Source: a virus | Taxonomy: Duplodnaviria; Heunggongvirae; Uroviricota; Caudoviricetes | Reading direction: 5' to 3' (one strand) | Virus record (IMG/VR): IMGVR_UViG_2645727978_000010 | DNA: 38,285 bases | Made by a program: the position numbers and the translations under genes | Shown here: piece by piece, positions 10,882-35,045 of the stretch | How the letters are laid out: the number at the start of each line of letters is the position of its first letter | Position numbering within the stretch: the first letter of the stretch is position 1 | The notes under the pieces: generated by a model | Told to the model about the DNA's origin: nothing | Seen by the model: only the letters and a program-made list of their open reading frames with translations | Database searches by the model: none

Positions 10882-11460
10882 ATGAGAGACATTGATGTAA
10901 GAAAGGCTGTGCATGCCAAGATTTTGAGAGATCATCATAAAGATCCTGACACCCTAATCATTGATGAGTTTACGATGAATCTGGGGGCTAGCAGAGCTGA
11001 TATAGCAGTGATCAATGGGCTTATACATGGTTATGAGTTGAAGAGCAAAAGTGATAACTTGCTCAGATTACCAGCGCAGGTGCAACATTACTCATCAGTG
11101 ATGGATAAAGTAACGTTGGTTGTCTCTGATTGCCATCTTTATGATGCTTTAAGCATAGTTCCATCATGGTGGGGGATAAAGCAAGTTACGCAAGGTGCAC
11201 GGCAAGGTATCCATTTAAAAACAATTCGAACTAGCAAGTTGAATCCACAAGTGGACAAACTTTCCTTAACAATGCTTCTTTGGAAAGATGAATTGCTTTC
11301 CCTATTAAGTGATGTAGGGGAGCTACAGAATTTGAAAAATAAACCTAAACGCGTCTTATGGTCAAAACTCGCCAATAGTATGGATGTTGGCGAGCTTCGT
11401 GAAGCTGTTCGAGTTAAACTTAAAGCCCGTAAAGAGTGGCGAGTTGCTCAACAACCTTAG
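10882..11460 (+). CDS. Predicted PD-(D/E)xK nuclease-fold protein (192 aa); sce7726-like by recollection
   Basis: Track ORF with ATG start; AT-rich; motif IIDEF...RADIAVINGLIHGYELKSK fits the D...D-x12-ExK restriction-endonuclease-like signature; family assignment not verified. Confidence 0.6.
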   Translation: MRDIDVRKAVHAKILRDHHKDPDTLIIDEFTMNLGASRADIAVINGLIHGYELKSKSDNLLRLPAQVQHYSSVMDKVTLVVSDCHLYDALSIVPSWWGIKQVTQGARQGIHLKTIRTSKLNPQVDKLSLTMLLWKDELLSLLSDVGELQNLKNKPKRVLWSKLANSMDVGELREAVRVKLKARKEWRVAQQP

Positions 11461-12517
11461 TTATGTGATGGTTTTGCCCAATCCTACGCCATACCTCTGG
11501 GCTACCAAATTTATAGTTACCAGAGGGATTGGCTTTGTAGGCTTGATACTCGTTTGCATAATATTCTATGTCTCTATCTCCCGCACAGAATGTAGGCCCT
11601 GAATATTCTCGATGAGCAAGAATATCCTCACTATGTTTACCATATTGTTCATAACCAAAGCGATTAGCTACTCTTCCTCGAAATACCCAAAAGTCATTAT
11701 CTCCAGAGTATCTGACGCTGGCAGATACGCTAGGGAATCGCGTCGAAAGCCTATTAAAGTCGGGGTGCTGTACTCCATAATCACTATAAATCACATTTCT
11801 GGCAAGTTCTTTTCTATTCATTAAACTCTGCCATAAAATCCACTCGATTCGAGGTTGAGAATATAGACCAACAGAAATATCACTGAGATCTGTAGGAAAT
11901 GAACCCCCAGAAAGAATCACTTTTCTGTATTCATTGAGGTGCGCCAGATTGTTTATCAATCCCATTGCCAAAGTATATAGTTCGCCGGAATTAAGTTTAT
12001 CCTCGGTTAACTCATCTCTTAAGTCAATAATTATATCAATATTTGATAAAGGAATTCCCAGATGATTAATGTAATGCGTTATTAATTGTGGGTTAACCAG
12101 ATCTAACGTGGTTAATCTCAAGCATATTTCATTCTGCATTAATTCATCAATCGCTCCTTTATAGTTAGATGGGCGAGTTGGTGAACTGACAGGAATAACT
12201 CTTATCCCCATATCTCTAACTTGATTAACCGCATTTATTATAGGGTAATGATCTTCAGGAGAAATAAAATGCTCTTCAATTAATAATCCATCAATATAAA
12301 CACCTTGCATATCTGAGCAAGATTTTGAGACTTTCTTTCCGAACTCTATAAGAGTCTCGTTATAACTCTTTAAGGCAATACCTGAATCAGGGTCAATTGG
12401 CACTGGTTCAATTTCGAGTAATGGCAAAATTTTTGATTTCTTTTCAATGGATAGCTGCGATAAAGCTGATAACTCAGAACGTTTCGCTTTCAGAATAGGA
12501 ATATATGAAATTGTCAT
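11420..12517 (-). CDS. 365-aa protein of unknown function; 'beta protein'/sce7725-like by recollection
   Basis: Track ORF with ATG start and AAGGT RBS (rev-comp of 12518-12535); AT-rich; convergent with the nuclease-fold gene with 41-bp 3' overlap; N-terminus MTISYIPILKAKRSEL recalls that family. Confidence 0.6.
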   Translation of the reverse strand: MTISYIPILKAKRSELSALSQLSIEKKSKILPLLEIEPVPIDPDSGIALKSYNETLIEFGKKVSKSCSDMQGVYIDGLLIEEHFISPEDHYPIINAVNQVRDMGIRVIPVSSPTRPSNYKGAIDELMQNEICLRLTTLDLVNPQLITHYINHLGIPLSNIDIIIDLRDELTEDKLNSGELYTLAMGLINNLAHLNEYRKVILSGGSFPTDLSDISVGLYSQPRIEWILWQSLMNRKELARNVIYSDYGVQHPDFNRLSTRFPSVSASVRYSGDNDFWVFRGRVANRFGYEQYGKHSEDILAHREYSGPTFCAGDRDIEYYANEYQAYKANPSGNYKFGSPEVWRRIGQNHHITKVVEQLATLYGL

Positions 12518-12869
12518 GTTAATACCTTATACAGAATCAATTAACAATTAATGGTTCTTCGGACATTGAAATTTATATCGCAAAAATTGGCAAACTCTCC
12601 TCGACTACTCACTTGTGGGTATCCTGGCGTAAAAGGAATGACTTGGCAATACCCGGTGTGATCATAAGTCATTGAAAATGATCATTTTTATCAGTCTTTC
12701 TTCCATGATGAATGCTAATGCCATTTGATTTGTTGAGGTAAAAACTGTTAAAAATCAAAACGATGTAATTGAAATGAACGTTCGGTAGCATTCACGCTTT
12801 AAATGTTTCTTTTGTGCTGATTGGATGAATTTTGGTCACTTATGATGAGAGATGTTGCAGGAAAAGAAG

Positions 12870-12898
12870 TTGGCATTGATCTATTGGATAGTTAGAAT
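12870..12898 (+). promoter_or_regulatory. Candidate hok mRNA promoter (TTGGCA -17 bp- TAGAAT)
   Basis: -35-like 12870-12875, -10-like 12893-12898; leader beginning CTTGAGGCTATCTGCCTCAGG follows, resembling the 5' end of plasmid R1 hok mRNA as I recall it. Confidence 0.35.
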
Positions 12899-12964
12899 TG
12901 CTGCGGGTGCTTGAGGCTATCTGCCTCAGGCATGAACACCAAAAGGCAGATAGAGAAAAGCCCC

Positions 12965-13027
12965 AGTTAACATTACGCGTCCTACAAGACGCTTAACATT
13001 AATCTGAGGCCCAATCTATGTCTCACA
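12965..13027 (-). ncRNA. Candidate Sok-like antisense RNA (approximate extent)
   Basis: Minus-strand promoter-like TTGCCT (13061-13056) -17 bp- TAACCT (13038-13033) inside the hok leader, reading across the leader ORF start; hairpin GCGTC-n6-GACGC at 12977-12992; ends not determinable. Confidence 0.3.
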
Positions 13028-13074
13028 AATGTAGGTTAGCCTCTTACGTGCCGAAAGGCAAGGAGAAGCAGGCT

Positions 13075-13230
13075 ATGAAGCAGCAAAAGGCGATGTTAAT
13101 CGCCCTGATCGTCATCTGTTTAACCGTCATAGTGACGGCACTGGTAACGAGGAAAGACCTCTGCGAGGTACGAATCCGAACCGGCCAGACGGAGGTTGCT
13201 GTCTTCGTGGACTACGAATCTGAGAAGTAA
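13075..13230 (+). CDS. hok: Hok/Gef-family type I toxin (51 aa; RelF/HokD-like)
   Basis: AAGGAGAAG RBS; product MKQQKAMLIALIVICLTVIVTALVTRKDLCEVRIRTGQTEVAVFVDYESEK has single TM helix plus conserved Cys, matching my recollection of HokD/RelF; the in-frame upstream extension (track ORF 13018..13230) occupies the mok position. Confidence 0.85.
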   Translation: MKQQKAMLIALIVICLTVIVTALVTRKDLCEVRIRTGQTEVAVFVDYESEK

Positions 13231-13300
13231 GAGTGACTAGGCGGGAGAGTAATCTCCCGCCACCTCTGATGTGTCAGGCATCCTCAACGCACCCGCACTT

Positions 13301-29123: not shown

Positions 29124-29311
29124 CGTTTAACAGCCTGCCGGACGGGCTGTCCTACCTTCTCAATCCGGTTGACGCCGGGTTAATTCCTTATACAGCACTT
29201 AAAGATGGCTCTGTCGATTTGTATGACATTGCTCTCTTGAATGACCATCTGGCGGTAAAAGCGGATAACCAGCGACGCATTGAGAAATGGAGAGAGGATA
29301 ATGAACGCTGA
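28671..29311 (+). CDS. Tail assembly chaperone, predicted -1 frameshift-extended isoform
   Basis: Slippery heptamer G_GGA_AAT at 29066-29072 followed by T-run; -1 frame open for 80 codons from 29072 to TGA 29309-29311, overlapping the tape measure start. Confidence 0.5.
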
Positions 29312-31289
29312 AACTATTAAAGATTTCCTCGTCTCGCTTGGCTTCAGTGTGGATGATGCAGGAGCGAAAAAGTTCGGTTCTGTCCTCGCCGGTACAACTG
29401 CAAATGTCATCAAAATGGGGCTGGCTGTTGAAGGAGCTGCGTTGTCCGTGGTGGCCTTCACGGCTAAGATCGCCTCCGGCCTGGATAATCTTTACTGGGC
29501 GTCACAGCGCACCGGCGCGACAGTCCAGGGAATTCAGTCTATTGGCTATGCGGTTTCGCAGGTTGGCGGCAGCGTGGACGCTGCGCGATCTTCTCTGGAA
29601 AGCCTATCCCGGTTTATTCGTAACAATCCCGGTGCAGAAGGCTTTCTGAATCGCCTGGGCGTACAGACCCGTGATGCCAGCGGTAACATGCGTGACATGG
29701 CCGCTATTTTTACGGGCGTTGGACAGAAACTCAGCAGCATGCCGTATTACCGGGCTAACCAGTATGCGCAGATGCTGGGCATTGACGAAAATACCCTTAT
29801 GGCGATGCGCCGGGGTGTGGGTGGCTTCTCCGGGCAGTACAGCGCAATGGCGAAAGCTATCGGCTTCAATGCTGACGAGGCGGCCAGAAGCTCCAACAAA
29901 TTTATGACCTCCCTGCGTGAGTTTGGCGCGATGGCAGGCATGGCCCGTGACAAAATCGGCTCTAATCTTGCGGGGGGGCTTGCGGGTTCGCTGGACACCC
30001 TGCGCCGCCATATCCTGGACAACTTCCCTCGTATCGAGCAGACCCTGACGAAAGCCATAAAAGGCATTCTGGCGCTCGGGGATATTATCGGGCGGCTGTT
30101 CTTCAGACTGATTGAGGGGACATCAGGCCTTATCACCTGGTGGCAATCGCTGGATAAGCAAACGCGGGAGTTGATCTCGCTGTTTGGCGCACTGACGATT
30201 GCGCTGCGCATTCTGAACAGTACGTTCTGGATGTCGCCGATTGGCCTCATTACCGCGCTGGCGGCGGGTATTGCCCTCCTGTGGGAGGACTATCAGACCT
30301 GGAAGGAAGGCGGCGACAGCCTGATTGACTGGGGCAAGTGGAAACCGGAGGTCGATGCCGCGCTGAAGATGGTTCGTGACCTTAAAACGACCGTTAACGA
30401 CCTGGTGAAAGCGCTGGCGAAACTGCTCAATATTGACCCCAAATCATGGTCCCTGAAGTGGGATTTCAGCAACTTCATCGACCAGATGGGCGAATTCAGC
30501 AAAATGCTGAACATGATCGCCGACCTGCTCAACGCTATCAAAGATGGCCGCTGGGCTGATGCCGTCAGCATCGGCAAACAGATACTTAATCAGGGCAGCG
30601 AAAATCCGTCAGCGATGCCGATGGTTACAGACAGCGCTAACAGTACTGCCGACTGGATTAAAGAGCACTGGGGATTCGATCCCCGCAGTGTGGGCCGGAC
30701 GGTACGCGGCTGGTTTGGTGATGATGAGCCGGAACAACATGCACAGGCTACGAAACGAGGAGAACGGAATAACAATCCGGGAAACCTTAATTTTGCTGGT
30801 CAGGCAGGGGCTTCTCTTGAACGCCCGGGCGGGCGATTTGCCAGATTTGAAACTGCTTTTGATGGATTACGGGCTCTTGCTCGTCAGTTAATGCTGTACG
30901 CCGGACGGGGAATAAACAGTGTGGAGAAAATTATCTCTACCTGGGCACCTGCGTCTGATAATAACAACACAACTGCGTATATCAGGGCTGTATCGCAACG
31001 ACTGGGAGTGGATCCCCGGGCTGCCCTGAATATGAGCGATCCGCAAACCATGTCAGCATTGATGAGCAGCATTATCCAGCATGAGAATGGAAGAAATATC
31101 TATTCTCGGGAGCTGATTAATAAGGCTGCCGTGGCGGGAATTAGTGGCAAAGTGACAGAGGTTAACCAGCAAAATACCTACCACATTTACGGTGGTGGAG
31201 ATCCGCACGCTGTCGGTAATGAGGTTGCACGTCGGCAACAGTCTGCAAATGCTCAGGTCATGCGAAGTAATCAGGTGAGGGTGGGTTAG
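29301..31289 (+). CDS. Tail tape measure protein (662 aa)
   Basis: Track ORF 29280..31289 trimmed to ATG 29301 (GGAGAGAGGA RBS); long Ala/Gly-rich helical protein with internal hydrophobic segments; follows chaperone. Confidence 0.8.
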   Translation: MNAETIKDFLVSLGFSVDDAGAKKFGSVLAGTTANVIKMGLAVEGAALSVVAFTAKIASGLDNLYWASQRTGATVQGIQSIGYAVSQVGGSVDAARSSLESLSRFIRNNPGAEGFLNRLGVQTRDASGNMRDMAAIFTGVGQKLSSMPYYRANQYAQMLGIDENTLMAMRRGVGGFSGQYSAMAKAIGFNADEAARSSNKFMTSLREFGAMAGMARDKIGSNLAGGLAGSLDTLRRHILDNFPRIEQTLTKAIKGILALGDIIGRLFFRLIEGTSGLITWWQSLDKQTRELISLFGALTIALRILNSTFWMSPIGLITALAAGIALLWEDYQTWKEGGDSLIDWGKWKPEVDAALKMVRDLKTTVNDLVKALAKLLNIDPKSWSLKWDFSNFIDQMGEFSKMLNMIADLLNAIKDGRWADAVSIGKQILNQGSENPSAMPMVTDSANSTADWIKEHWGFDPRSVGRTVRGWFGDDEPEQHAQATKRGERNNNPGNLNFAGQAGASLERPGGRFARFETAFDGLRALARQLMLYAGRGINSVEKIISTWAPASDNNNTTAYIRAVSQRLGVDPRAALNMSDPQTMSALMSSIIQHENGRNIYSRELINKAAVAGISGKVTEVNQQNTYHIYGGGDPHAVGNEVARRQQSANAQVMRSNQVRVG

Positions 31290-31876
31290 TGGATATTCTC
31301 TCTACACTTTTTCATCAGCAGAGCAGAAAAATAGGAATGATTGTTCCCTGTGTTGTTATTTCAGAGAAGCATACAGATATGCTTGAAATAACAGAGCATC
31401 CGGTAGAGGTCGGGGCCGCTGTCGCTGATCATGCCTATAAAAAACCGTCAGAAGTGGTGATGGAGGTTGGTTTCGCCGGTGGTGGCGCATTGCTGGATTT
31501 TGCCAGTAACCTGACGGCTACCAGCCTGCTCGGCCTGAGTCCTCAGCAGACGTATCAGGAGCTACTGGATCTGCAGGAAAGCCGTATCCCCTTCGATGTG
31601 GTAACCGGTAAACGACTGTACAGCAACATGTTGATCCGGGCGCTGGAAGTGACGACGGACAAGACAACCGAAAACGTCCTGTCCGCCGTCCTCACCCTGA
31701 GGGAGGTCCTTATCTCCCGGACACAGCAGATTTCCGTCGCGGATAAAACCAACATGAAGGAAGGGGCCAGCACGTCGGCGGTACAGAACAGCGGCAACAA
31801 AACCACCAAGCCTCCAGATACTTCACTGCTGAAAAGCATCACGGGTAACGTGGCGTCATTACTGGGGGGCGGCTAA
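31289..31876 (+). CDS. Hypothetical tail/baseplate protein (195 aa)
   Basis: Track ORF; GTG start overlapping tape measure stop (TAGTG). Confidence 0.45.
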   Translation: MDILSTLFHQQSRKIGMIVPCVVISEKHTDMLEITEHPVEVGAAVADHAYKKPSEVVMEVGFAGGGALLDFASNLTATSLLGLSPQQTYQELLDLQESRIPFDVVTGKRLYSNMLIRALEVTTDKTTENVLSAVLTLREVLISRTQQISVADKTNMKEGASTSAVQNSGNKTTKPPDTSLLKSITGNVASLLGGG

Positions 31877-32178
31877 TGGCAATTCAGGAAATTCCGCTGA
31901 CAGCGGACAACCAGCAGTTCAGCATCGTCCTGGGTGGTGTTACCTGGCGGATTAGCATCATATGGCGCGATCTGTACTGGATTATGGACCTGCAGAACGA
32001 CAGAGGGGAGCCGGTAATCTCCGGTATTCCTCTCGTCACTGGTGCTGACCTGCTGGCGCAGTACGCCTGTATGGGGCTTGGTTTTAAGCTGGTGGTGGTC
32101 TGTGATGACAACACACAGGATTACCCCACAAAAACTGACCTGGGCGGTCGCAGCCATTTACTGGTATCAACGGAGTAA
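31876..32178 (+). CDS. Hypothetical tail/baseplate protein (100 aa)
   Basis: Track ORF; ATG overlaps upstream stop. Confidence 0.45.
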   Translation: MAIQEIPLTADNQQFSIVLGGVTWRISIIWRDLYWIMDLQNDRGEPVISGIPLVTGADLLAQYACMGLGFKLVVVCDDNTQDYPTKTDLGGRSHLLVSTE

Positions 32179-32180
32179 GC

Positions 32181-33242
32181 ATGTCACAGAACTGGATGAG
32201 ACATTTCGAGCTGCAGCTTGTGGACGGGAACGGTCAGGGAATTGAGCTAAGTGATTTTAAAGTGACCTTTACGATCGACTGGTTCAACATCAGCAGCGCG
32301 TCCCGGGTAGGGACTATCAAAATTTATAACCTCTCGGCAGATACTGTGAACCGAATCACCGGGCGGGAGTTTTCGAAAGTGCGTCTGATTGCGGGTTACG
32401 ACGGTATCGCGCCGGAGGTGTCGGCAAGCGACGTCGGGATCGTGCGGGAGGTTGATGCGGCGGACGTGGGCCAGAGTGATGGCCGCAACTACGGACTGAT
32501 TTTCAGCGGTGAAATTCGCTACTCGGTTACAGGAAAAGACAGTCCGGTTGATTCCTACGTCCTGATTCAGGCAGCAGATACTGATCTGGCTTTTGCCACC
32601 AGTATAACCTCACAGACGCTGGCTGCCGGTTACACGGTCGCTGATGTGAACCGTGCGCTGATGAAAGACTTCGAAGCCAAAGGTGCGACCGAAGGCCTGA
32701 CGCCTGAAATGCCTGCTACTGTATTCCCCCGGGGGCGGGTGCTCTTTGGCATGACGCGGCATCTAATGGATAACGTAGCCGGGCAATGTGGCGCAACATG
32801 GCAATTCGTAGACGGTCAGCGCCAGATGGTGGCGAATAATGAATATGTTCACGAAGCGATTGTGCTCAACAGCGCTACCGGGCTTATTGGCATGCCGCAG
32901 CAGACCATCGGCAACGGCGTAAACGTTCGCGCGCTTATTAATCCGAACATCCGGGTTAATGGGCTCATTCAACTGGATCAGGCTTCCGTATATCGCACCG
33001 CGTTGTCGAACAACGATATCGCTATGGCTGGTGGGCAGATCACCGACCAGAACACGGACGGAAATATTACGCTAAGCGGCACCACATCGCAGCCTGCCAG
33101 CATCGCAACGGATGGCGTTTATATTGTGCGCGGGATTATGTACACTGGCGATACAAGGGGCCAGGCGTGGTACATGGATATGATGTGCGAAGCGCGTGGC
33201 GCGGCGGATCTGTATACGCAATCGGCTTTGCAAAGGGAATGA
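32181..33242 (+). CDS. Hypothetical baseplate protein (353 aa), possibly hub
   Basis: Track ORF; position between tape measure and spike gene. Confidence 0.5.
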   Translation: MSQNWMRHFELQLVDGNGQGIELSDFKVTFTIDWFNISSASRVGTIKIYNLSADTVNRITGREFSKVRLIAGYDGIAPEVSASDVGIVREVDAADVGQSDGRNYGLIFSGEIRYSVTGKDSPVDSYVLIQAADTDLAFATSITSQTLAAGYTVADVNRALMKDFEAKGATEGLTPEMPATVFPRGRVLFGMTRHLMDNVAGQCGATWQFVDGQRQMVANNEYVHEAIVLNSATGLIGMPQQTIGNGVNVRALINPNIRVNGLIQLDQASVYRTALSNNDIAMAGGQITDQNTDGNITLSGTTSQPASIATDGVYIVRGIMYTGDTRGQAWYMDMMCEARGAADLYTQSALQRE

Positions 33243-33245
33243 GCA

Positions 33246-33587
33246 ATGAGGGGTATTATTTTTCTGTTAGCTGTCTTTTCTGCGTGCAGCGCGTGGGCGG
33301 ATGGCTTCACGGTTAAATGCGGTGGCTACACTATGGTTGCAAACCAGGGCGAGTTATCGACAATCAACGGTGAAAGAGTTACCTCTCAAAAAATCACCGA
33401 ACTGGGTACCAATGGTTTGAAAGTAGACATGGGGCTTATGCCTGCCAAAGACGGTAACAACTACGGCTTTGAATACATTCGTCGCCCTGGTACCGAAACG
33501 CGATTCCTGAATGTCCAACTGCTGCAGAACAGCATGGATGCGCCGAAAATCATCGGTTCCTTTCCATGCAAAAAGATTGTTGATTAA
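33246..33587 (+). CDS. Secreted protein of unknown function (113 aa) with N-terminal signal peptide
   Basis: Track ORF; AGGGA RBS; MRGIIFLLAVFSACSAWA/DG looks like a Sec signal with AxA cleavage motif; embedded between baseplate genes. Confidence 0.55.
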   Translation: MRGIIFLLAVFSACSAWADGFTVKCGGYTMVANQGELSTINGERVTSQKITELGTNGLKVDMGLMPAKDGNNYGFEYIRRPGTETRFLNVQLLQNSMDAPKIIGSFPCKKIVD

Positions 33588-33604
33588 TCACTCGTAATTA
33601 TAAT
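33577..33604 (+). promoter_or_regulatory. Candidate promoter (TTGTTG -16 bp- TATAAT) for the small membrane-protein gene
   Basis: -35-like 33577-33582, perfect -10 TATAAT 33599-33604; AT-rich intergenic region. Confidence 0.35.
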
Positions 33605-33640
33605 GTGGTACTTCTACTTTCACGATAAGGAATTTGTCGC

Positions 33641-33880
33641 ATGTTCGGATTTGATAAATTAATAACTCCAAAAATCATCAACGTTCTGTATGGCATCACA
33701 ATGTTACTTCTGGTTGTTGCCGCCATTATAACGTTTGTTAATGGGAAGGCTGCTGGCGCTTTAGTGCTTTTGTTATGTGCTGTATTTTGCCGAATATTCT
33801 TTGAGTGCATCATGGTTTCATTTAAAAACAATGAGTATCTTCGCCGAATAGCTGAAGCGTTAGAAGCAAACAAGCAGTAA
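33641..33880 (+). CDS. Small membrane protein (79 aa, two predicted TM helices)
   Basis: Track ORF; AAGG RBS; hydrophobic segments IINVLYGITMLLLVVAAIITFV and ALVLLLCAVFCRIFFECIMV; AT-rich; own terminator. Confidence 0.55.
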   Translation: MFGFDKLITPKIINVLYGITMLLLVVAAIITFVNGKAAGALVLLLCAVFCRIFFECIMVSFKNNEYLRRIAEALEANKQ

Positions 33881-33898
33881 TGAAACTTCAATAATGAA

Positions 33899-33922
33899 CC
33901 CGCCACCCGGCGGGTTTTTTGC
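33899..33922 (+). terminator. Rho-independent terminator after small membrane-protein gene
   Basis: CCCGCC-ACCC-GGCGGG hairpin followed by TTTTTTGCTTTC. Confidence 0.65.
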
Positions 33923-33939
33923 TTTCTGGAGCCTACTAA

Positions 33940-34692
33940 ATGGCAGTATCTGACCAGACCCGCAGCGGCGACCTTGCCGAAACATTCAAATCTGAACGGG
34001 AAACCACAAAGAACCAGATCCGTGTCGCCTTGCCTGGCATTGTTCAGTCATTCGATCCCGACGCGGTGACGGCGGTTGTGCAGCCAGCTATCCGTTCGGT
34101 TGAAAAGGATAACGACGGTAACCGCATTACCAAAAATTACCCGTTGCTGGTGGATGTGCCAGTGGTATTTCCGCGCGGCGGAGGCTGTACGTTGACTTTT
34201 CCGGTTAAAGCCGGGGATGAGTGTCTTGTTGTTTTTGCCGATCGTTGTATTGATTTCTGGTGGCAGAACGGCGGGATACAGGAGCCTGTTGATGACAGAA
34301 TGCATGATTTATCGGATGCGTTTTGTATTGTCGGTCCCCAGTCGCAGGCGAGGAAGATTAGCGGTATTAATACCAGTGCCACACAGTTGCGTAGTGACGA
34401 CGGCAGCACCTATTTTGAGCTTAATCCTGATACCAGGAAAATTAAAATTGTCGCTCCGGGTGGTCTTGATGTGGTTGCCCCTCTGGCTGATTTTTCTGAG
34501 AAAGTAACCATTCATGGCCTGTTAACCTGGATGGGTGGCATGGTGGGGTCTGTGGTTTCTGGTGTGGCTTCAAAAATCACTGGTGCTGTTGAGTTTTTGG
34601 GTAGCGTGAAGGCTAACGGCAAGCCAATCGATGATACGCACACTCATGGCGGTGTTCAGCGCGGTGGAAGCAATACCGATAGGGTAAACTGA
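33940..34692 (+). CDS. Baseplate assembly/spike protein (gpV-like), 250 aa
   Basis: Track ORF; GGAG RBS; position in baseplate cluster; Gly-rich C-terminal region. Confidence 0.6.
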   Translation: MAVSDQTRSGDLAETFKSERETTKNQIRVALPGIVQSFDPDAVTAVVQPAIRSVEKDNDGNRITKNYPLLVDVPVVFPRGGGCTLTFPVKAGDECLVVFADRCIDFWWQNGGIQEPVDDRMHDLSDAFCIVGPQSQARKISGINTSATQLRSDDGSTYFELNPDTRKIKIVAPGGLDVVAPLADFSEKVTIHGLLTWMGGMVGSVVSGVASKITGAVEFLGSVKANGKPIDDTHTHGGVQRGGSNTDRVN

Positions 34693-35045
34693 TGCGATAC
34701 AGACGTGAAGACGCCGATGGCGATTACACCTTTGGCAGCGGTGATGACACCTGGCTGATTAACTCACCGGAGGCCGTGGCGCAGGCGGTAAAAACGTGAT
34801 TTGAATTGTGGTATGGGCAATGGTTTCTCGACACCACCGAAGGGACCCCGTGGATCCAGTCTGTGCTCGGTAAGCAGAAGCCGGAAACCTACAACCTGGC
34901 GATCCGTAAGCGCATCCTCGAAACGCGGGGCGTTAAATCAATCCTCTCTTTCAATACGACGGTGGATACCACGACCCGACGTGTCATGTTTTCCGCTGAA
35001 ATCGACACTCTCTATGGAATAACGACTGTTAAATCGGAGGCGTAA
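34692..35045 (+). pseudogene. Baseplate protein gene (gpW/gp25 position) interrupted by in-frame TGA at 34797-34799
   Basis: ATG 34692 (overlaps upstream TGA) opens 35 codons, then TGA, then the same frame stays open for 82 codons to TAA 35043-35045; combined ~117 aa fits a single small baseplate gene. Confidence 0.5.

Follow-up and report, generated by a model that had tools for sequence, protein, structure and literature searches.

A candidate two-part accessory locus between the baseplate hub and spike genes of an Escherichia coli prophage

What are two small genes for envelope-directed proteins doing inside the baseplate operon of a contractile-tailed phage? The question is raised by IMG/VR virus record IMGVR_UViG_2645727978_000010, a 38,285-nucleotide stretch of Caudoviricetes DNA (hereafter the window) in which two open reading frames (ORFs) of 113 and 79 codons, ORF113 and ORF79, lie between the baseplate hub gene and the central spike gene. 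A preliminary description had taken both for morons, the first encoding a secreted protein and the second a small membrane protein, and had named superinfection exclusion among their candidate functions. We propose that the hub–spike junction would be better described as a two-part accessory locus than as two morons. Its first part, variable segment V1 (33201 to ~33416), would be an old allelic cassette made up of the last 13 hub codons and ORF113 and translated with the late tail operon. Its second part, variable segment V2 (33576–33895), would be a cargo slot that here holds a self-contained DUF4282 moron with a -10 box, ribosome-binding site, hairpin and terminator. Both proteins would hinder the delivery of rival-phage DNA at the envelope. 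Envelope-level superinfection exclusion is, on our analysis, the most likely function of the two, with an even chance of being correct. The elements on which the proposal turns are the following.

33201–33239, plus strand: last 13 hub codons, start of variable segment V1, covarying with the ORF113 allele type
33246–33587, plus strand: ORF113, 113 amino acids (aa), probably an exported small β-barrel protein; signal peptide in codons 1–18 (33246–33299), mature part with C25 and C108
33576–33895, plus strand: variable segment V2, the cargo slot, defined by flank alignment of eight E. coli relatives and by a cargo inventory
33577–33604, plus strand: promoter-like element, -35 TTGTTG (33577–33582), 16-nucleotide (nt) spacer, perfect -10 TATAAT (33599–33604)
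33627–33631, plus strand: Shine–Dalgarno sequence AAGGA, 9 nt 5′ of the ORF79 start codon
33641–33880, plus strand: ORF79, 79 aa, DUF4282 inner-membrane helical hairpin (Pfam PF14110, 1.2e-10)
33896–33923, plus strand: intrinsic terminator, a 9-bp GC-rich stem-loop (33896–33917) followed by a T-run, z = -2.95

ORF113 is probably exported and is coupled to the hub gene

Both ORFs lie where the preliminary description placed them, and family matches support their reality as genes. ORF113 is, judging by these matches, a genuine gene and not a chance ORF: it matches PHROG 3443 (unknown function) at 1.4e-47, and its 396 homologue clusters all belong to Enterobacterales. Among 1.84 billion proteins the family has 40 representatives at the 50% level, including five suspected false positives; P0124, P0143, P0149, P0159 and P0160 were rejected as relatives, being giant repeat proteins rich in T, S and G whose summed weak stretches are compositional.

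The N-terminus of ORF113 has the make-up of a Sec-type leader, with R2, a hydrophobic core and the sequence A16-W-A18 before D19. Across 52 homologues A18 never varies, A16 is conserved to at least 90%, and 47 of the 59 full-length distinct family sequences pass a crude n/h/c rule for Sec leaders, the others looking like mis-called starts. The predicted signal peptide is thereby borne out as a conserved leader. A lipobox-like string, ‘FSAC’, does not make ORF113 a lipoprotein: the family does not conserve C14, and its consensus is an AxA site; the distant homologue P0145 does carry a lipobox. Residues C25, L88 and C108 are invariant down to ~23% identity, and the AlphaFold2 (AF2) model is all-β with ~7–8 strands (predicted local distance difference test score, pLDDT, 70.6). 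As modelled, ORF113 is probably a Sec-exported, disulfide-closed small β-barrel. No Pfam, NCBIfam or PADLOC model matched it, though RefSeq names a relative ‘STY1065/STY2022 family’, and Pfam returned nothing for distant or fused family members (P0145 and others). A Foldseek search of the model against PDB and BFVD gave nothing at E up to 1e-3, and the family profile reached no PDB chain at a meaningful E-value.

The position of the gene ties it to the hub. ORF113 starts 3 nt past the hub stop codon, and in other alleles its start overlaps that stop (ATGA). A promoter scan called nothing in the 3′ end of the hub gene, where merely weak -10-like strings are visible by eye, and a terminator scan found none belonging to ORF113. 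Because it starts at the hub stop and has neither promoter nor terminator of its own, ORF113 belongs to the late tail operon.

The distribution of ORF113 tells the same story. Of the complete E. coli genomes, 313 carry DNA of the ORF113 family and 306 carry the hub; the window’s own ORF113 allele (at least 80% query coverage) is found in only 96. All 19 loci compared, which span ~12 genera (Pantoea, Citrobacter, Enterobacter, Raoultella, Dryocola, Rosenbergiella, Shimwellia, Apirhabdus and others), have a homologue in the hub–spike interval, in nearly every case immediately 3′ of the hub, and the same holds for the hub–spike junctions of phages SEN34, Mulock, YP3 and vB_EcoM-689R2. These findings tell against the earlier reading of ORF113 as a moron. 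The suggested check for presence or absence in relatives thus gave a split answer: ORF79 is variable, as expected of a moron, and ORF113 comes close to being universally conserved in this tail module, which argues against that label. It is absent from three relatives. In an E. coli relative (L008) it is replaced by a 241-aa lipoprotein; in a Hafnia locus (L044) a DUF4282 gene stands alone between hub and spike; and in Edwardsiella phage GF-2 the hub and spike genes overlap. From these comparisons ORF113 appears not to be indispensable, and each of the two proteins can be dispensed with in some relatives.

Allelic divergence begins inside the hub gene

Loci whose hub is 92–96% identical to that of the window nevertheless carry ORF113 proteins only 51–65% identical to the window’s. 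An alignment of 11 alleles places the boundary of this divergence within the 3′ end of the hub gene, directly after a stretch that would serve as the left recombination arm.

33113–33202, plus strand: hub 3′ stretch, left recombination arm; nucleotide identity 96–99%
33203–33368, plus strand: hub end and ORF113 5′ part; nucleotide identity 38–59%
3′ half of ORF113, plus strand: nucleotide identity mostly 73–85%, with dips to 50–57%
From 33567, plus strand: nucleotide identity falls again
Hub codons -150 to -16, plus strand: synonymous divergence (pS) 0.32
Last 13 hub codons, plus strand: pS 0.73
ORF113, plus strand: pS 0.73–0.82

The ratio of nonsynonymous to synonymous divergence (dN/dS) of ORF113 is 0.29 in the N-terminal half of the mature protein and 0.09 in the C-terminal half. 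These ratios, with synonymous sites saturated, do not support positive selection on ORF113. The pattern of substitution instead identifies the ORF113 versions as old alleles under purifying selection and not as a decaying insert; alleles of this age, maintained in circulation, would be expected of a gene engaged in conflict.

The last 13 hub codons covary with the downstream gene. The hub tails DLYTQSALQR.., DLVSSSARERGL, DLRSASSLQRE.., DMPSS.ALQRGL and DLLSSSAQQRIYS are each paired with one ORF113 type. This covariation may be functional, or may reflect the mere absence of conserved sequence between the two. No covariation was found between ORF113 and spike alleles: type-B ORF113 alleles occur with spikes 63–98% identical to that of the window. 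In Pseudescherichia vulneris (NZ_BBMZ01000043.1; positions 330–2849 of locus L015), four tandem ~625-bp units lie between hub and spike. Each unit repeats 261 nt of the hub 3′ end (70–96% identical), followed by a different ORF113 paralogue; three of the paralogues are intact and one is truncated.

ORF79 is a DUF4282 protein on a moron-like cassette

ORF79 is likewise, by its family matches, a real gene and not a chance ORF. It matches PF14110 with 42.2 bits against a gathering cut-off of 27, over model positions 2–85 of 86, and RefSeq labels an identical protein DUF4282. Its match to PHROG 12129, whose function is listed as unknown, is at 8e-48. The protein has 87 homologue clusters, and its close homologues (45–75% identity) occur only in Enterobacterales. 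A Pfam scan at E up to 0.1 returned DUF4282 and a sub-threshold YbhQ match alone, with no Imm, YebO or holin family, and the family profile matched no PDB chain at a meaningful E-value.

Hydropathy places two transmembrane helices (TM1 and TM2) at residues 12–33 and 39–60, in agreement with the two-helix protein described earlier, and the AF2 model is a helical hairpin (pLDDT 86.4; helices 10–33 and 37–78). In the model, TM2 continues into a predicted cytoplasmic helix bearing the conserved motif FKNNEYLRRI. Two positive charges lie at the N-terminus and four in the C-terminal tail; because they cluster at both termini, an N-in/C-in topology is indicated. Invariant in 31 homologues are I8, T9, P10, I12, Y17, G35, R51, E55, F61, K62, E65, Y66, L67, R69 and I70. 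The variable parts are TM1 and the periplasmic turn of ~5 residues.

The gene stands out from its surroundings in composition. The G+C content (GC) is 0.375–0.385 over 33500–33900, compared with ~0.53–0.57 on either side, so that the AT-rich stretch reported earlier is real. For the ORF79 gene the value is 0.38 against 0.51 in its flanks, and in four other DUF4282 contexts 0.38–0.39 against 0.45–0.54. The promoter-like element fared less well: its -10 hexamer is perfect, and the -35 hexamer has only three of six matches, so a consensus scan that demanded four of six in each hexamer did not call the element at 33577–33604. It is softer than the preliminary description implied.

The terminator, which that description had also noted, is firmer. 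It ends 17 nt before the spike start, and its hairpin reads AACCCGCC-loop-GGCGGGTTTTTTGCTTTCTGGAGCC, followed by the ATG of the spike gene. Seven of eight E. coli relatives (L002–L009) keep it with a variable loop (CACCC, CATCC, CACTT, CACCA, GGAT...), and it forms a short match common to many cassettes without DUF4282. In every context examined the DUF4282 gene is AT-rich and has a terminator 3′ of it. Since the terminator of the window sits inside a late tail operon, late transcription is required to read through it, presumably by antitermination.

The DUF4282 cassette is found in 83 complete E. coli genomes, or ~27% of the 306 module copies counted by the hub; unrelated cargo occupies the place elsewhere. 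By its deviant GC, terminator and presence/absence pattern, ORF79 qualifies on sequence grounds as a moron in the Juhala/Hendrix sense, its promoter being putative, and for this gene the earlier label stands.

The hub–spike junction carries a cargo slot

Among the eight E. coli relatives, sequences are colinear outside V2 and divergent within it. The left border lies at the FPCKK codons at the end of ORF113 and the right border at the terminator. We inventoried the contents of this interval in 30-odd loci from a dozen genera. They include TPR-like and HEPN pairs; a 190-aa protein with a YafO toxin (Pfam 4e-17); a T5orf172/MUG113 protein (5e-17); a secreted tRNA_anti-like OB protein (2.5e-16); a 176–186-aa PycTM-like protein (PADLOC 9e-4, weak) with an acidic protein of 57–65 aa (L004 2228–2934, L006 2223–2951, L014 4282–5039); and several more exported or membrane proteins, plus unknowns.

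The DUF4282 cassette itself has moved between backbones. In IMG/VR contigs the identical DUF4282 protein occurs beside three different left flanks: 17 contigs combine it with a hub 97–100% identical to that of the window and a window-type ORF113, two with a different ORF113 allele, and 12 with a hub only 48% identical. In these 12, DNA homology to the window begins at 33513, in the 3′ end of ORF113, which indicates that recombination, acting between the 3′ end of ORF113 on one side and the terminator or spike start on the other, is what moves the cassette. By these sequence comparisons the hub–spike junction is a recombination hotspot for swappable inserts, of which we found no description in the searchable literature.

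One set of slot contents deserves separate mention. Loci L002 (2967–4095), L003 (3057–4216), L017 and L021 carry a 243–258-aa helical-repeat-like protein with a 123–142-aa HEPN protein (Pfam HEPN 1e-3; PADLOC HEPN_IX, weak). Such pairs are candidates for an undescribed prophage defence pair. HepS is a single-protein HEPN system on Gifsy-1 (PMC13043305).

DUF4282 genes recur beside DNA-delivery genes

Homologues of ORF79 are spread over four or more kinds of genomic setting. The DUF4282 gene lies 0–62 nt after a tape-measure gene in 38 of the 49 divergent IMG/VR loci, a setting that comprises two main tail lineages and three loci with other tape-measure types. One lineage is a Klebsiella lambda-like siphovirus module, in which the tape measure and DUF4282 genes are followed by a 158-aa protein in the position of lambda gpM. 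The other is a Salmonella E217-like myovirus module with the order tape measure, DUF4282, Dit-like protein; a DNA search with this region found no match in isolated phages. Between hub and spike, DUF4282 is also present in Pectobacterium, together with an ORF113 homologue, and in Hafnia without one. In a Pantoea lambdoid prophage the gene lies 3′ of the lysis cassette. The recurrent neighbour of DUF4282 is envelope-crossing DNA-delivery machinery: tape measure, hub and spike.

The genome of Edwardsiella phage GF-2 (NC_026611; L129 4294–8316) offers a related arrangement. Tape-measure gene gp18 is abutted by DUF4282 gene gp19, after which come two arc-like genes, an antirepressor gene (ant), and then the Dit-like, plug, hub and spike genes. 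In phage P22 the order is ejection genes, sieA, mnt, arc, ant, so that on the P22 map sieA adjoins the ejection-protein genes and the mnt-arc-ant region. The GF-2 layout recalls this order.

The source prophage is probably tail-defective

A prophage of E. coli FDAARGOS_1059 is 99.94% identical to the window as far as position 37272. Its early region is Rac-like (recET, kilR), its lysis cassette, upstream of the hub–spike junction, comprises a lambda-family holin, a GH24 lysozyme and an Rz1-like gene, and its structural module resembles that of Salmonella phage SEN34. The prophage has a lambdoid genome and a contractile tail. SEN34 is temperate and combines a lambda-like genome with the morphology of a myovirus (PMC5261728); the paper that describes it contains neither proteomics nor a discussion of genes of the ORF113 or ORF79 type. 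The tail genes flanking the junction are listed here.

~29301–31289, plus strand: tape measure
31289–31876, plus strand: Dit-like protein (Pfam 5.9e-33)
31876–32178, plus strand: Pam3_gp18-type plug (6.1e-25)
32181–33242, plus strand: baseplate hub gene (PHROG 196 ‘baseplate hub’, 3.5e-89; Pfam E217_GP41, 6.7e-5)
33940–34692, plus strand: central spike gene, right flank of the junction (Pfam spike N-terminal domain 2.9e-44; Apex motif 1.3e-4)

Downstream of the spike follow genes for a sheath initiator, a Baseplate_J protein, a DUF2612 wedge protein and a fibre, which is the order of a contractile-tail baseplate operon. The gene for the gp25-like sheath initiator (34692–35045) contains an in-frame TGA stop at 34797–34799, and RefSeq annotates the same gene in the FDAARGOS_1059 prophage as a pseudogene (‘internal stop’). 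At the end of the window lies the C-terminal part of an IS66-family transposase (ORF 37888–38268, minus strand; Pfam 2.7e-23 and 6.1e-17). Past 37272 the tail-fibre region is disrupted or rearranged, its end replaced by this transposase fragment. The stop in the sheath-initiator gene, together with the IS66 fragment that replaces the end of the fibre region, makes a defective tail probable for this prophage. The reading frames of ORF113 and ORF79 are intact despite this damage.

Outside the hub–spike junction, the early region of the near-identical prophage (L048, ~10883–13231; window coordinates offset by up to 19 nt) holds genes that RefSeq names ‘sce7726 family protein’ and ‘beta family protein’ (opposite strand), with a Hok/Gef toxin gene. 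We regard this trio as additional accessory or defence-like cargo.

Proposed superinfection exclusion and its alternatives

To rationalize the presence of two envelope-directed proteins at this junction, we consider exclusion of incoming phages the best account. The periplasm would be the site of action of ORF113, whose target would be part of the arriving tail tip (hub, spike or tape measure), much as for Spackle or Ltp; ORF79 would do its blocking at the inner membrane, as do HK97 gp15, T4 Imm and P22 SieA. In favour of this account we count the moron anatomy and mobility of the DUF4282 cassette, its recurrence beside genes for DNA delivery, the conserved leader, Cys pair and old alleles of ORF113, and the lack of ORF113 in some relatives. 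For both proteins we infer expression in the lysogen, localization and an exclusion function.

Several observations weigh against exclusion. Given its late-gene coupling and lack of a promoter, ORF113 may not be made in the lysogen at all. Neither protein matched an exclusion or defence family in Pfam, NCBIfam or PADLOC, and PADLOC-DB 2.0 gave no defence-system match for either at E up to 0.1. No paper on DUF4282 was found in the searchable literature, and a search with ‘STY1065/STY2022’ led to astronomy papers only. The conserved residues of ORF79 lie on the cytoplasmic side (the N-terminus, the end of TM2 with its charged pair, and the C-terminal helix); because the periplasmic turn is short (~5 residues) and variable, the protein is ill-matched to a simple periplasm-side plug. 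One close DUF4282 homologue, in Franconibacter, has non-phage genes around it on the chromosome. Almost no spacer separates the DUF4282 gene from the tape-measure gene in the Salmonella and GF-2 lineages, where it looks like a fixed late gene, not a moron. Finally, physical linkage alone can explain the covariation of hub-tail and ORF113 alleles.

Within the exclusion reading, a more specific scheme can be drawn, which we regard as doubtful. The last 13 hub residues and the variable N-terminal half of ORF113 would form a co-evolving exclusion pair, lock and key: after tail contraction, the periplasmic ORF113 barrel would recognise the hub tail exposed by an arriving phage of its own type and plug the DNA exit. 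Rare hub-tail/ORF113 types would escape exclusion and hence be favoured. Such a scheme would account for the ancient alleles, for the divergence step within the hub gene and for the four-unit array of P. vulneris. DUF4282 would then be a second, widespread inner-membrane blocker directed at the tape measure, and the whole a ‘mating-type-like’ exclusion system within the baseplate operon.

Among the alternatives, the one that survives best is that ORF113, and possibly DUF4282 where it stands beside the tape measure, serves the phage’s own lytic cycle by blocking injection by progeny or rival virions into an infected or lysing cell or into debris, or by tuning the envelope or cell wall before lysis. 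The coupling of ORF113 to the hub stop, with no promoter or terminator of its own, is what one would expect of such a gene, as is the abutment of DUF4282 and tape-measure genes in GF-2 and Salmonella-type modules, and the exclusion lipoprotein Llp of T5 is likewise made during infection (PMC9586334). This idea largely overlaps with the preferred explanation, timing being the main difference, and we consider it possible if rather unlikely as a replacement for it: the prophage of the window is probably tail-defective with both ORFs intact, and the -10 box and terminator of ORF79 suit expression from a repressed prophage.

Lysogenic conversion unrelated to phage conflict would make ORF113 a host-protecting periplasmic inhibitor or binder (for example, of lysozyme-type enzymes, cf. 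PliC/MliC and Brucella PhiA) and ORF79 a factor in membrane stress or physiology. We think this improbable. A Pfam scan of ORF113 at E up to 0.1 found none of MliC, PliC and Ivy, the gene was never seen away from the hub–spike junction, and its allelic diversity follows the phage module and not the host, while DUF4282 is found repeatedly beside tape-measure, hub or spike genes of unrelated tail modules.

A quite unlikely alternative applies to ORF79 only, as a membrane-damaging effector of an abortive-infection or toxin-like kind, or as a holin- or antiholin-like regulator of lysis. R51 and E55 are invariant charged residues within TM2. Class II holins have an N-in/C-in two-helix topology with a charged C-terminal helix, features that ORF79 resembles, and a Pantoea prophage homologue lies just after the lysis cassette. 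Other occupants of the slot resemble abortive-infection or toxin–antitoxin proteins (YafO, HEPN, a weak PycTM-like match at 9e-4). ORF79 is, however, a single 79-aa gene with no partner or sensor and no Pfam holin match, and its stable presence in 83 E. coli genomes with a constitutive-looking promoter speaks against strong toxicity. We rejected ORF79 as the holin of this prophage, which already has lysis genes of its own upstream (lambda-family holin, GH24 lysozyme, Rz1-like gene).

A structural or assembly role in the baseplate or tail tip for either or both proteins, as the near-universality and translational coupling of ORF113 and the fixed place of DUF4282 after the tape-measure gene in ~30 related IMG/VR loci might suggest, is very improbable: tail assembly is cytoplasmic, yet ORF113 has retained an export signal of cleavable type together with the invariant Cys pair; L008, Hafnia L044 and GF-2 do without ORF113; DUF4282 is missing from ~73% of E. 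coli module copies; neither family profile matched a PDB chain; and PHROGs lists both as unknown. In this respect the preliminary description, which saw no likeness to virion components in either protein, was well founded, there being no structural Pfam or PHROG match.

If exclusion is confirmed, two protein families, a periplasmic β-barrel and DUF4282, would join the short list of enterobacterial blockers of DNA entry. The junction would be a new cargo hotspot in ~6% of complete E. coli genomes (306/5426), with its cassettes as candidate new defence genes, and a natural system for the evolution of exclusion specificity, in which old alleles are shuffled beside a nearly invariant hub. Should exclusion prove wrong, the junction would still present a clean mosaic architecture within a tail operon, and a caution that fixed components of a module can look like genes ‘inserted’ between structural ones.

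Comparison with known systems

Morons, exclusion proteins and prophage hotspots are already known kinds of element (PMC3594210, PMC9122126). What appears to be undescribed in the searchable literature is the hub–spike hotspot, the ORF113 family with its hub-linked ancient alleles, and the association of DUF4282 with tape-measure, hub and spike genes.

For ORF79, the comparison of first interest is HK97 gp15, an inner-membrane moron in the tail operon beside the tape-measure gene, whose exclusion specificity maps to the tail region (Cumby et al. 2012; reviewed in PMC3594210). Both are small inner-membrane proteins encoded by a self-contained, GC-deviant unit with a terminator in a tail operon; gp15 originates from a host membrane-protein family and blocks the entry of DNA, the determinant of its specificity lying in the incoming tail. 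The two differ in family, gp15 belonging to YebO, for which ORF79 has no Pfam match, and in site, which for ORF79 is the hub–spike junction, and the exclusion role of DUF4282 is our proposal. T4 Imm and P22 SieA are small integral inner-membrane blockers of DNA injection (PMC10883804). The location of the GF-2 DUF4282 gene between the tape measure and an arc/arc/ant module is reminiscent of sieA. In contrast to ORF79, SieA has three transmembrane segments and 162–164 aa; by the Pfam scan neither SieA nor Imm is related to ORF79 in sequence, and the conserved parts of ORF79 are cytoplasmic.

For ORF113, a counterpart exists in T4 Spackle (gp61.3), a periplasmic inhibitor that binds the tail-spike lysozyme gp5 (PMC7677548). 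Like ORF113 as predicted, Spackle is small, Sec-exported and periplasmic; it targets the hub–spike complex of superinfecting relatives and is made in the phage’s own lytic programme. Spackle is helical, whereas the ORF113 model is all-β, and ORF113 is hub-linked and highly polymorphic. Injection of DNA is also stopped by Ltp of TP-J34, which targets the tape measure (PMC3952083), and by T5 Llp and Cor, which target the receptor (PMC9586334). These, too, are small exported proteins encoded by phages or prophages. They are lipoproteins, whereas the ORF113 leader carries an AxA site of the signal-peptidase-I type and lacks a conserved lipobox Cys, and the folds are unrelated.

The slot as a whole resembles the prophage hotspots at which P2-like phages and P4 satellites carry anti-phage systems (Rousset et al. 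2022, PMC9122126). In both cases unrelated defence, toxin–antitoxin or accessory cassettes alternate at a fixed backbone position between near-identical prophages. Here the backbone is SEN34-like, and the slot lies inside the baseplate operon between hub and spike; a conserved terminator bounds it on one side and the 3′ end of ORF113, a polymorphic gene for a secreted protein, on the other. Orphan toxin-tip/immunity arrays, with displaced C-terminal toxin (CT)/immunity modules, are a feature of contact-dependent inhibition (CDI) and Rhs loci. The P. vulneris array, which repeats the hub 3′ end together with a divergent small exported protein, resembles them in architecture only.

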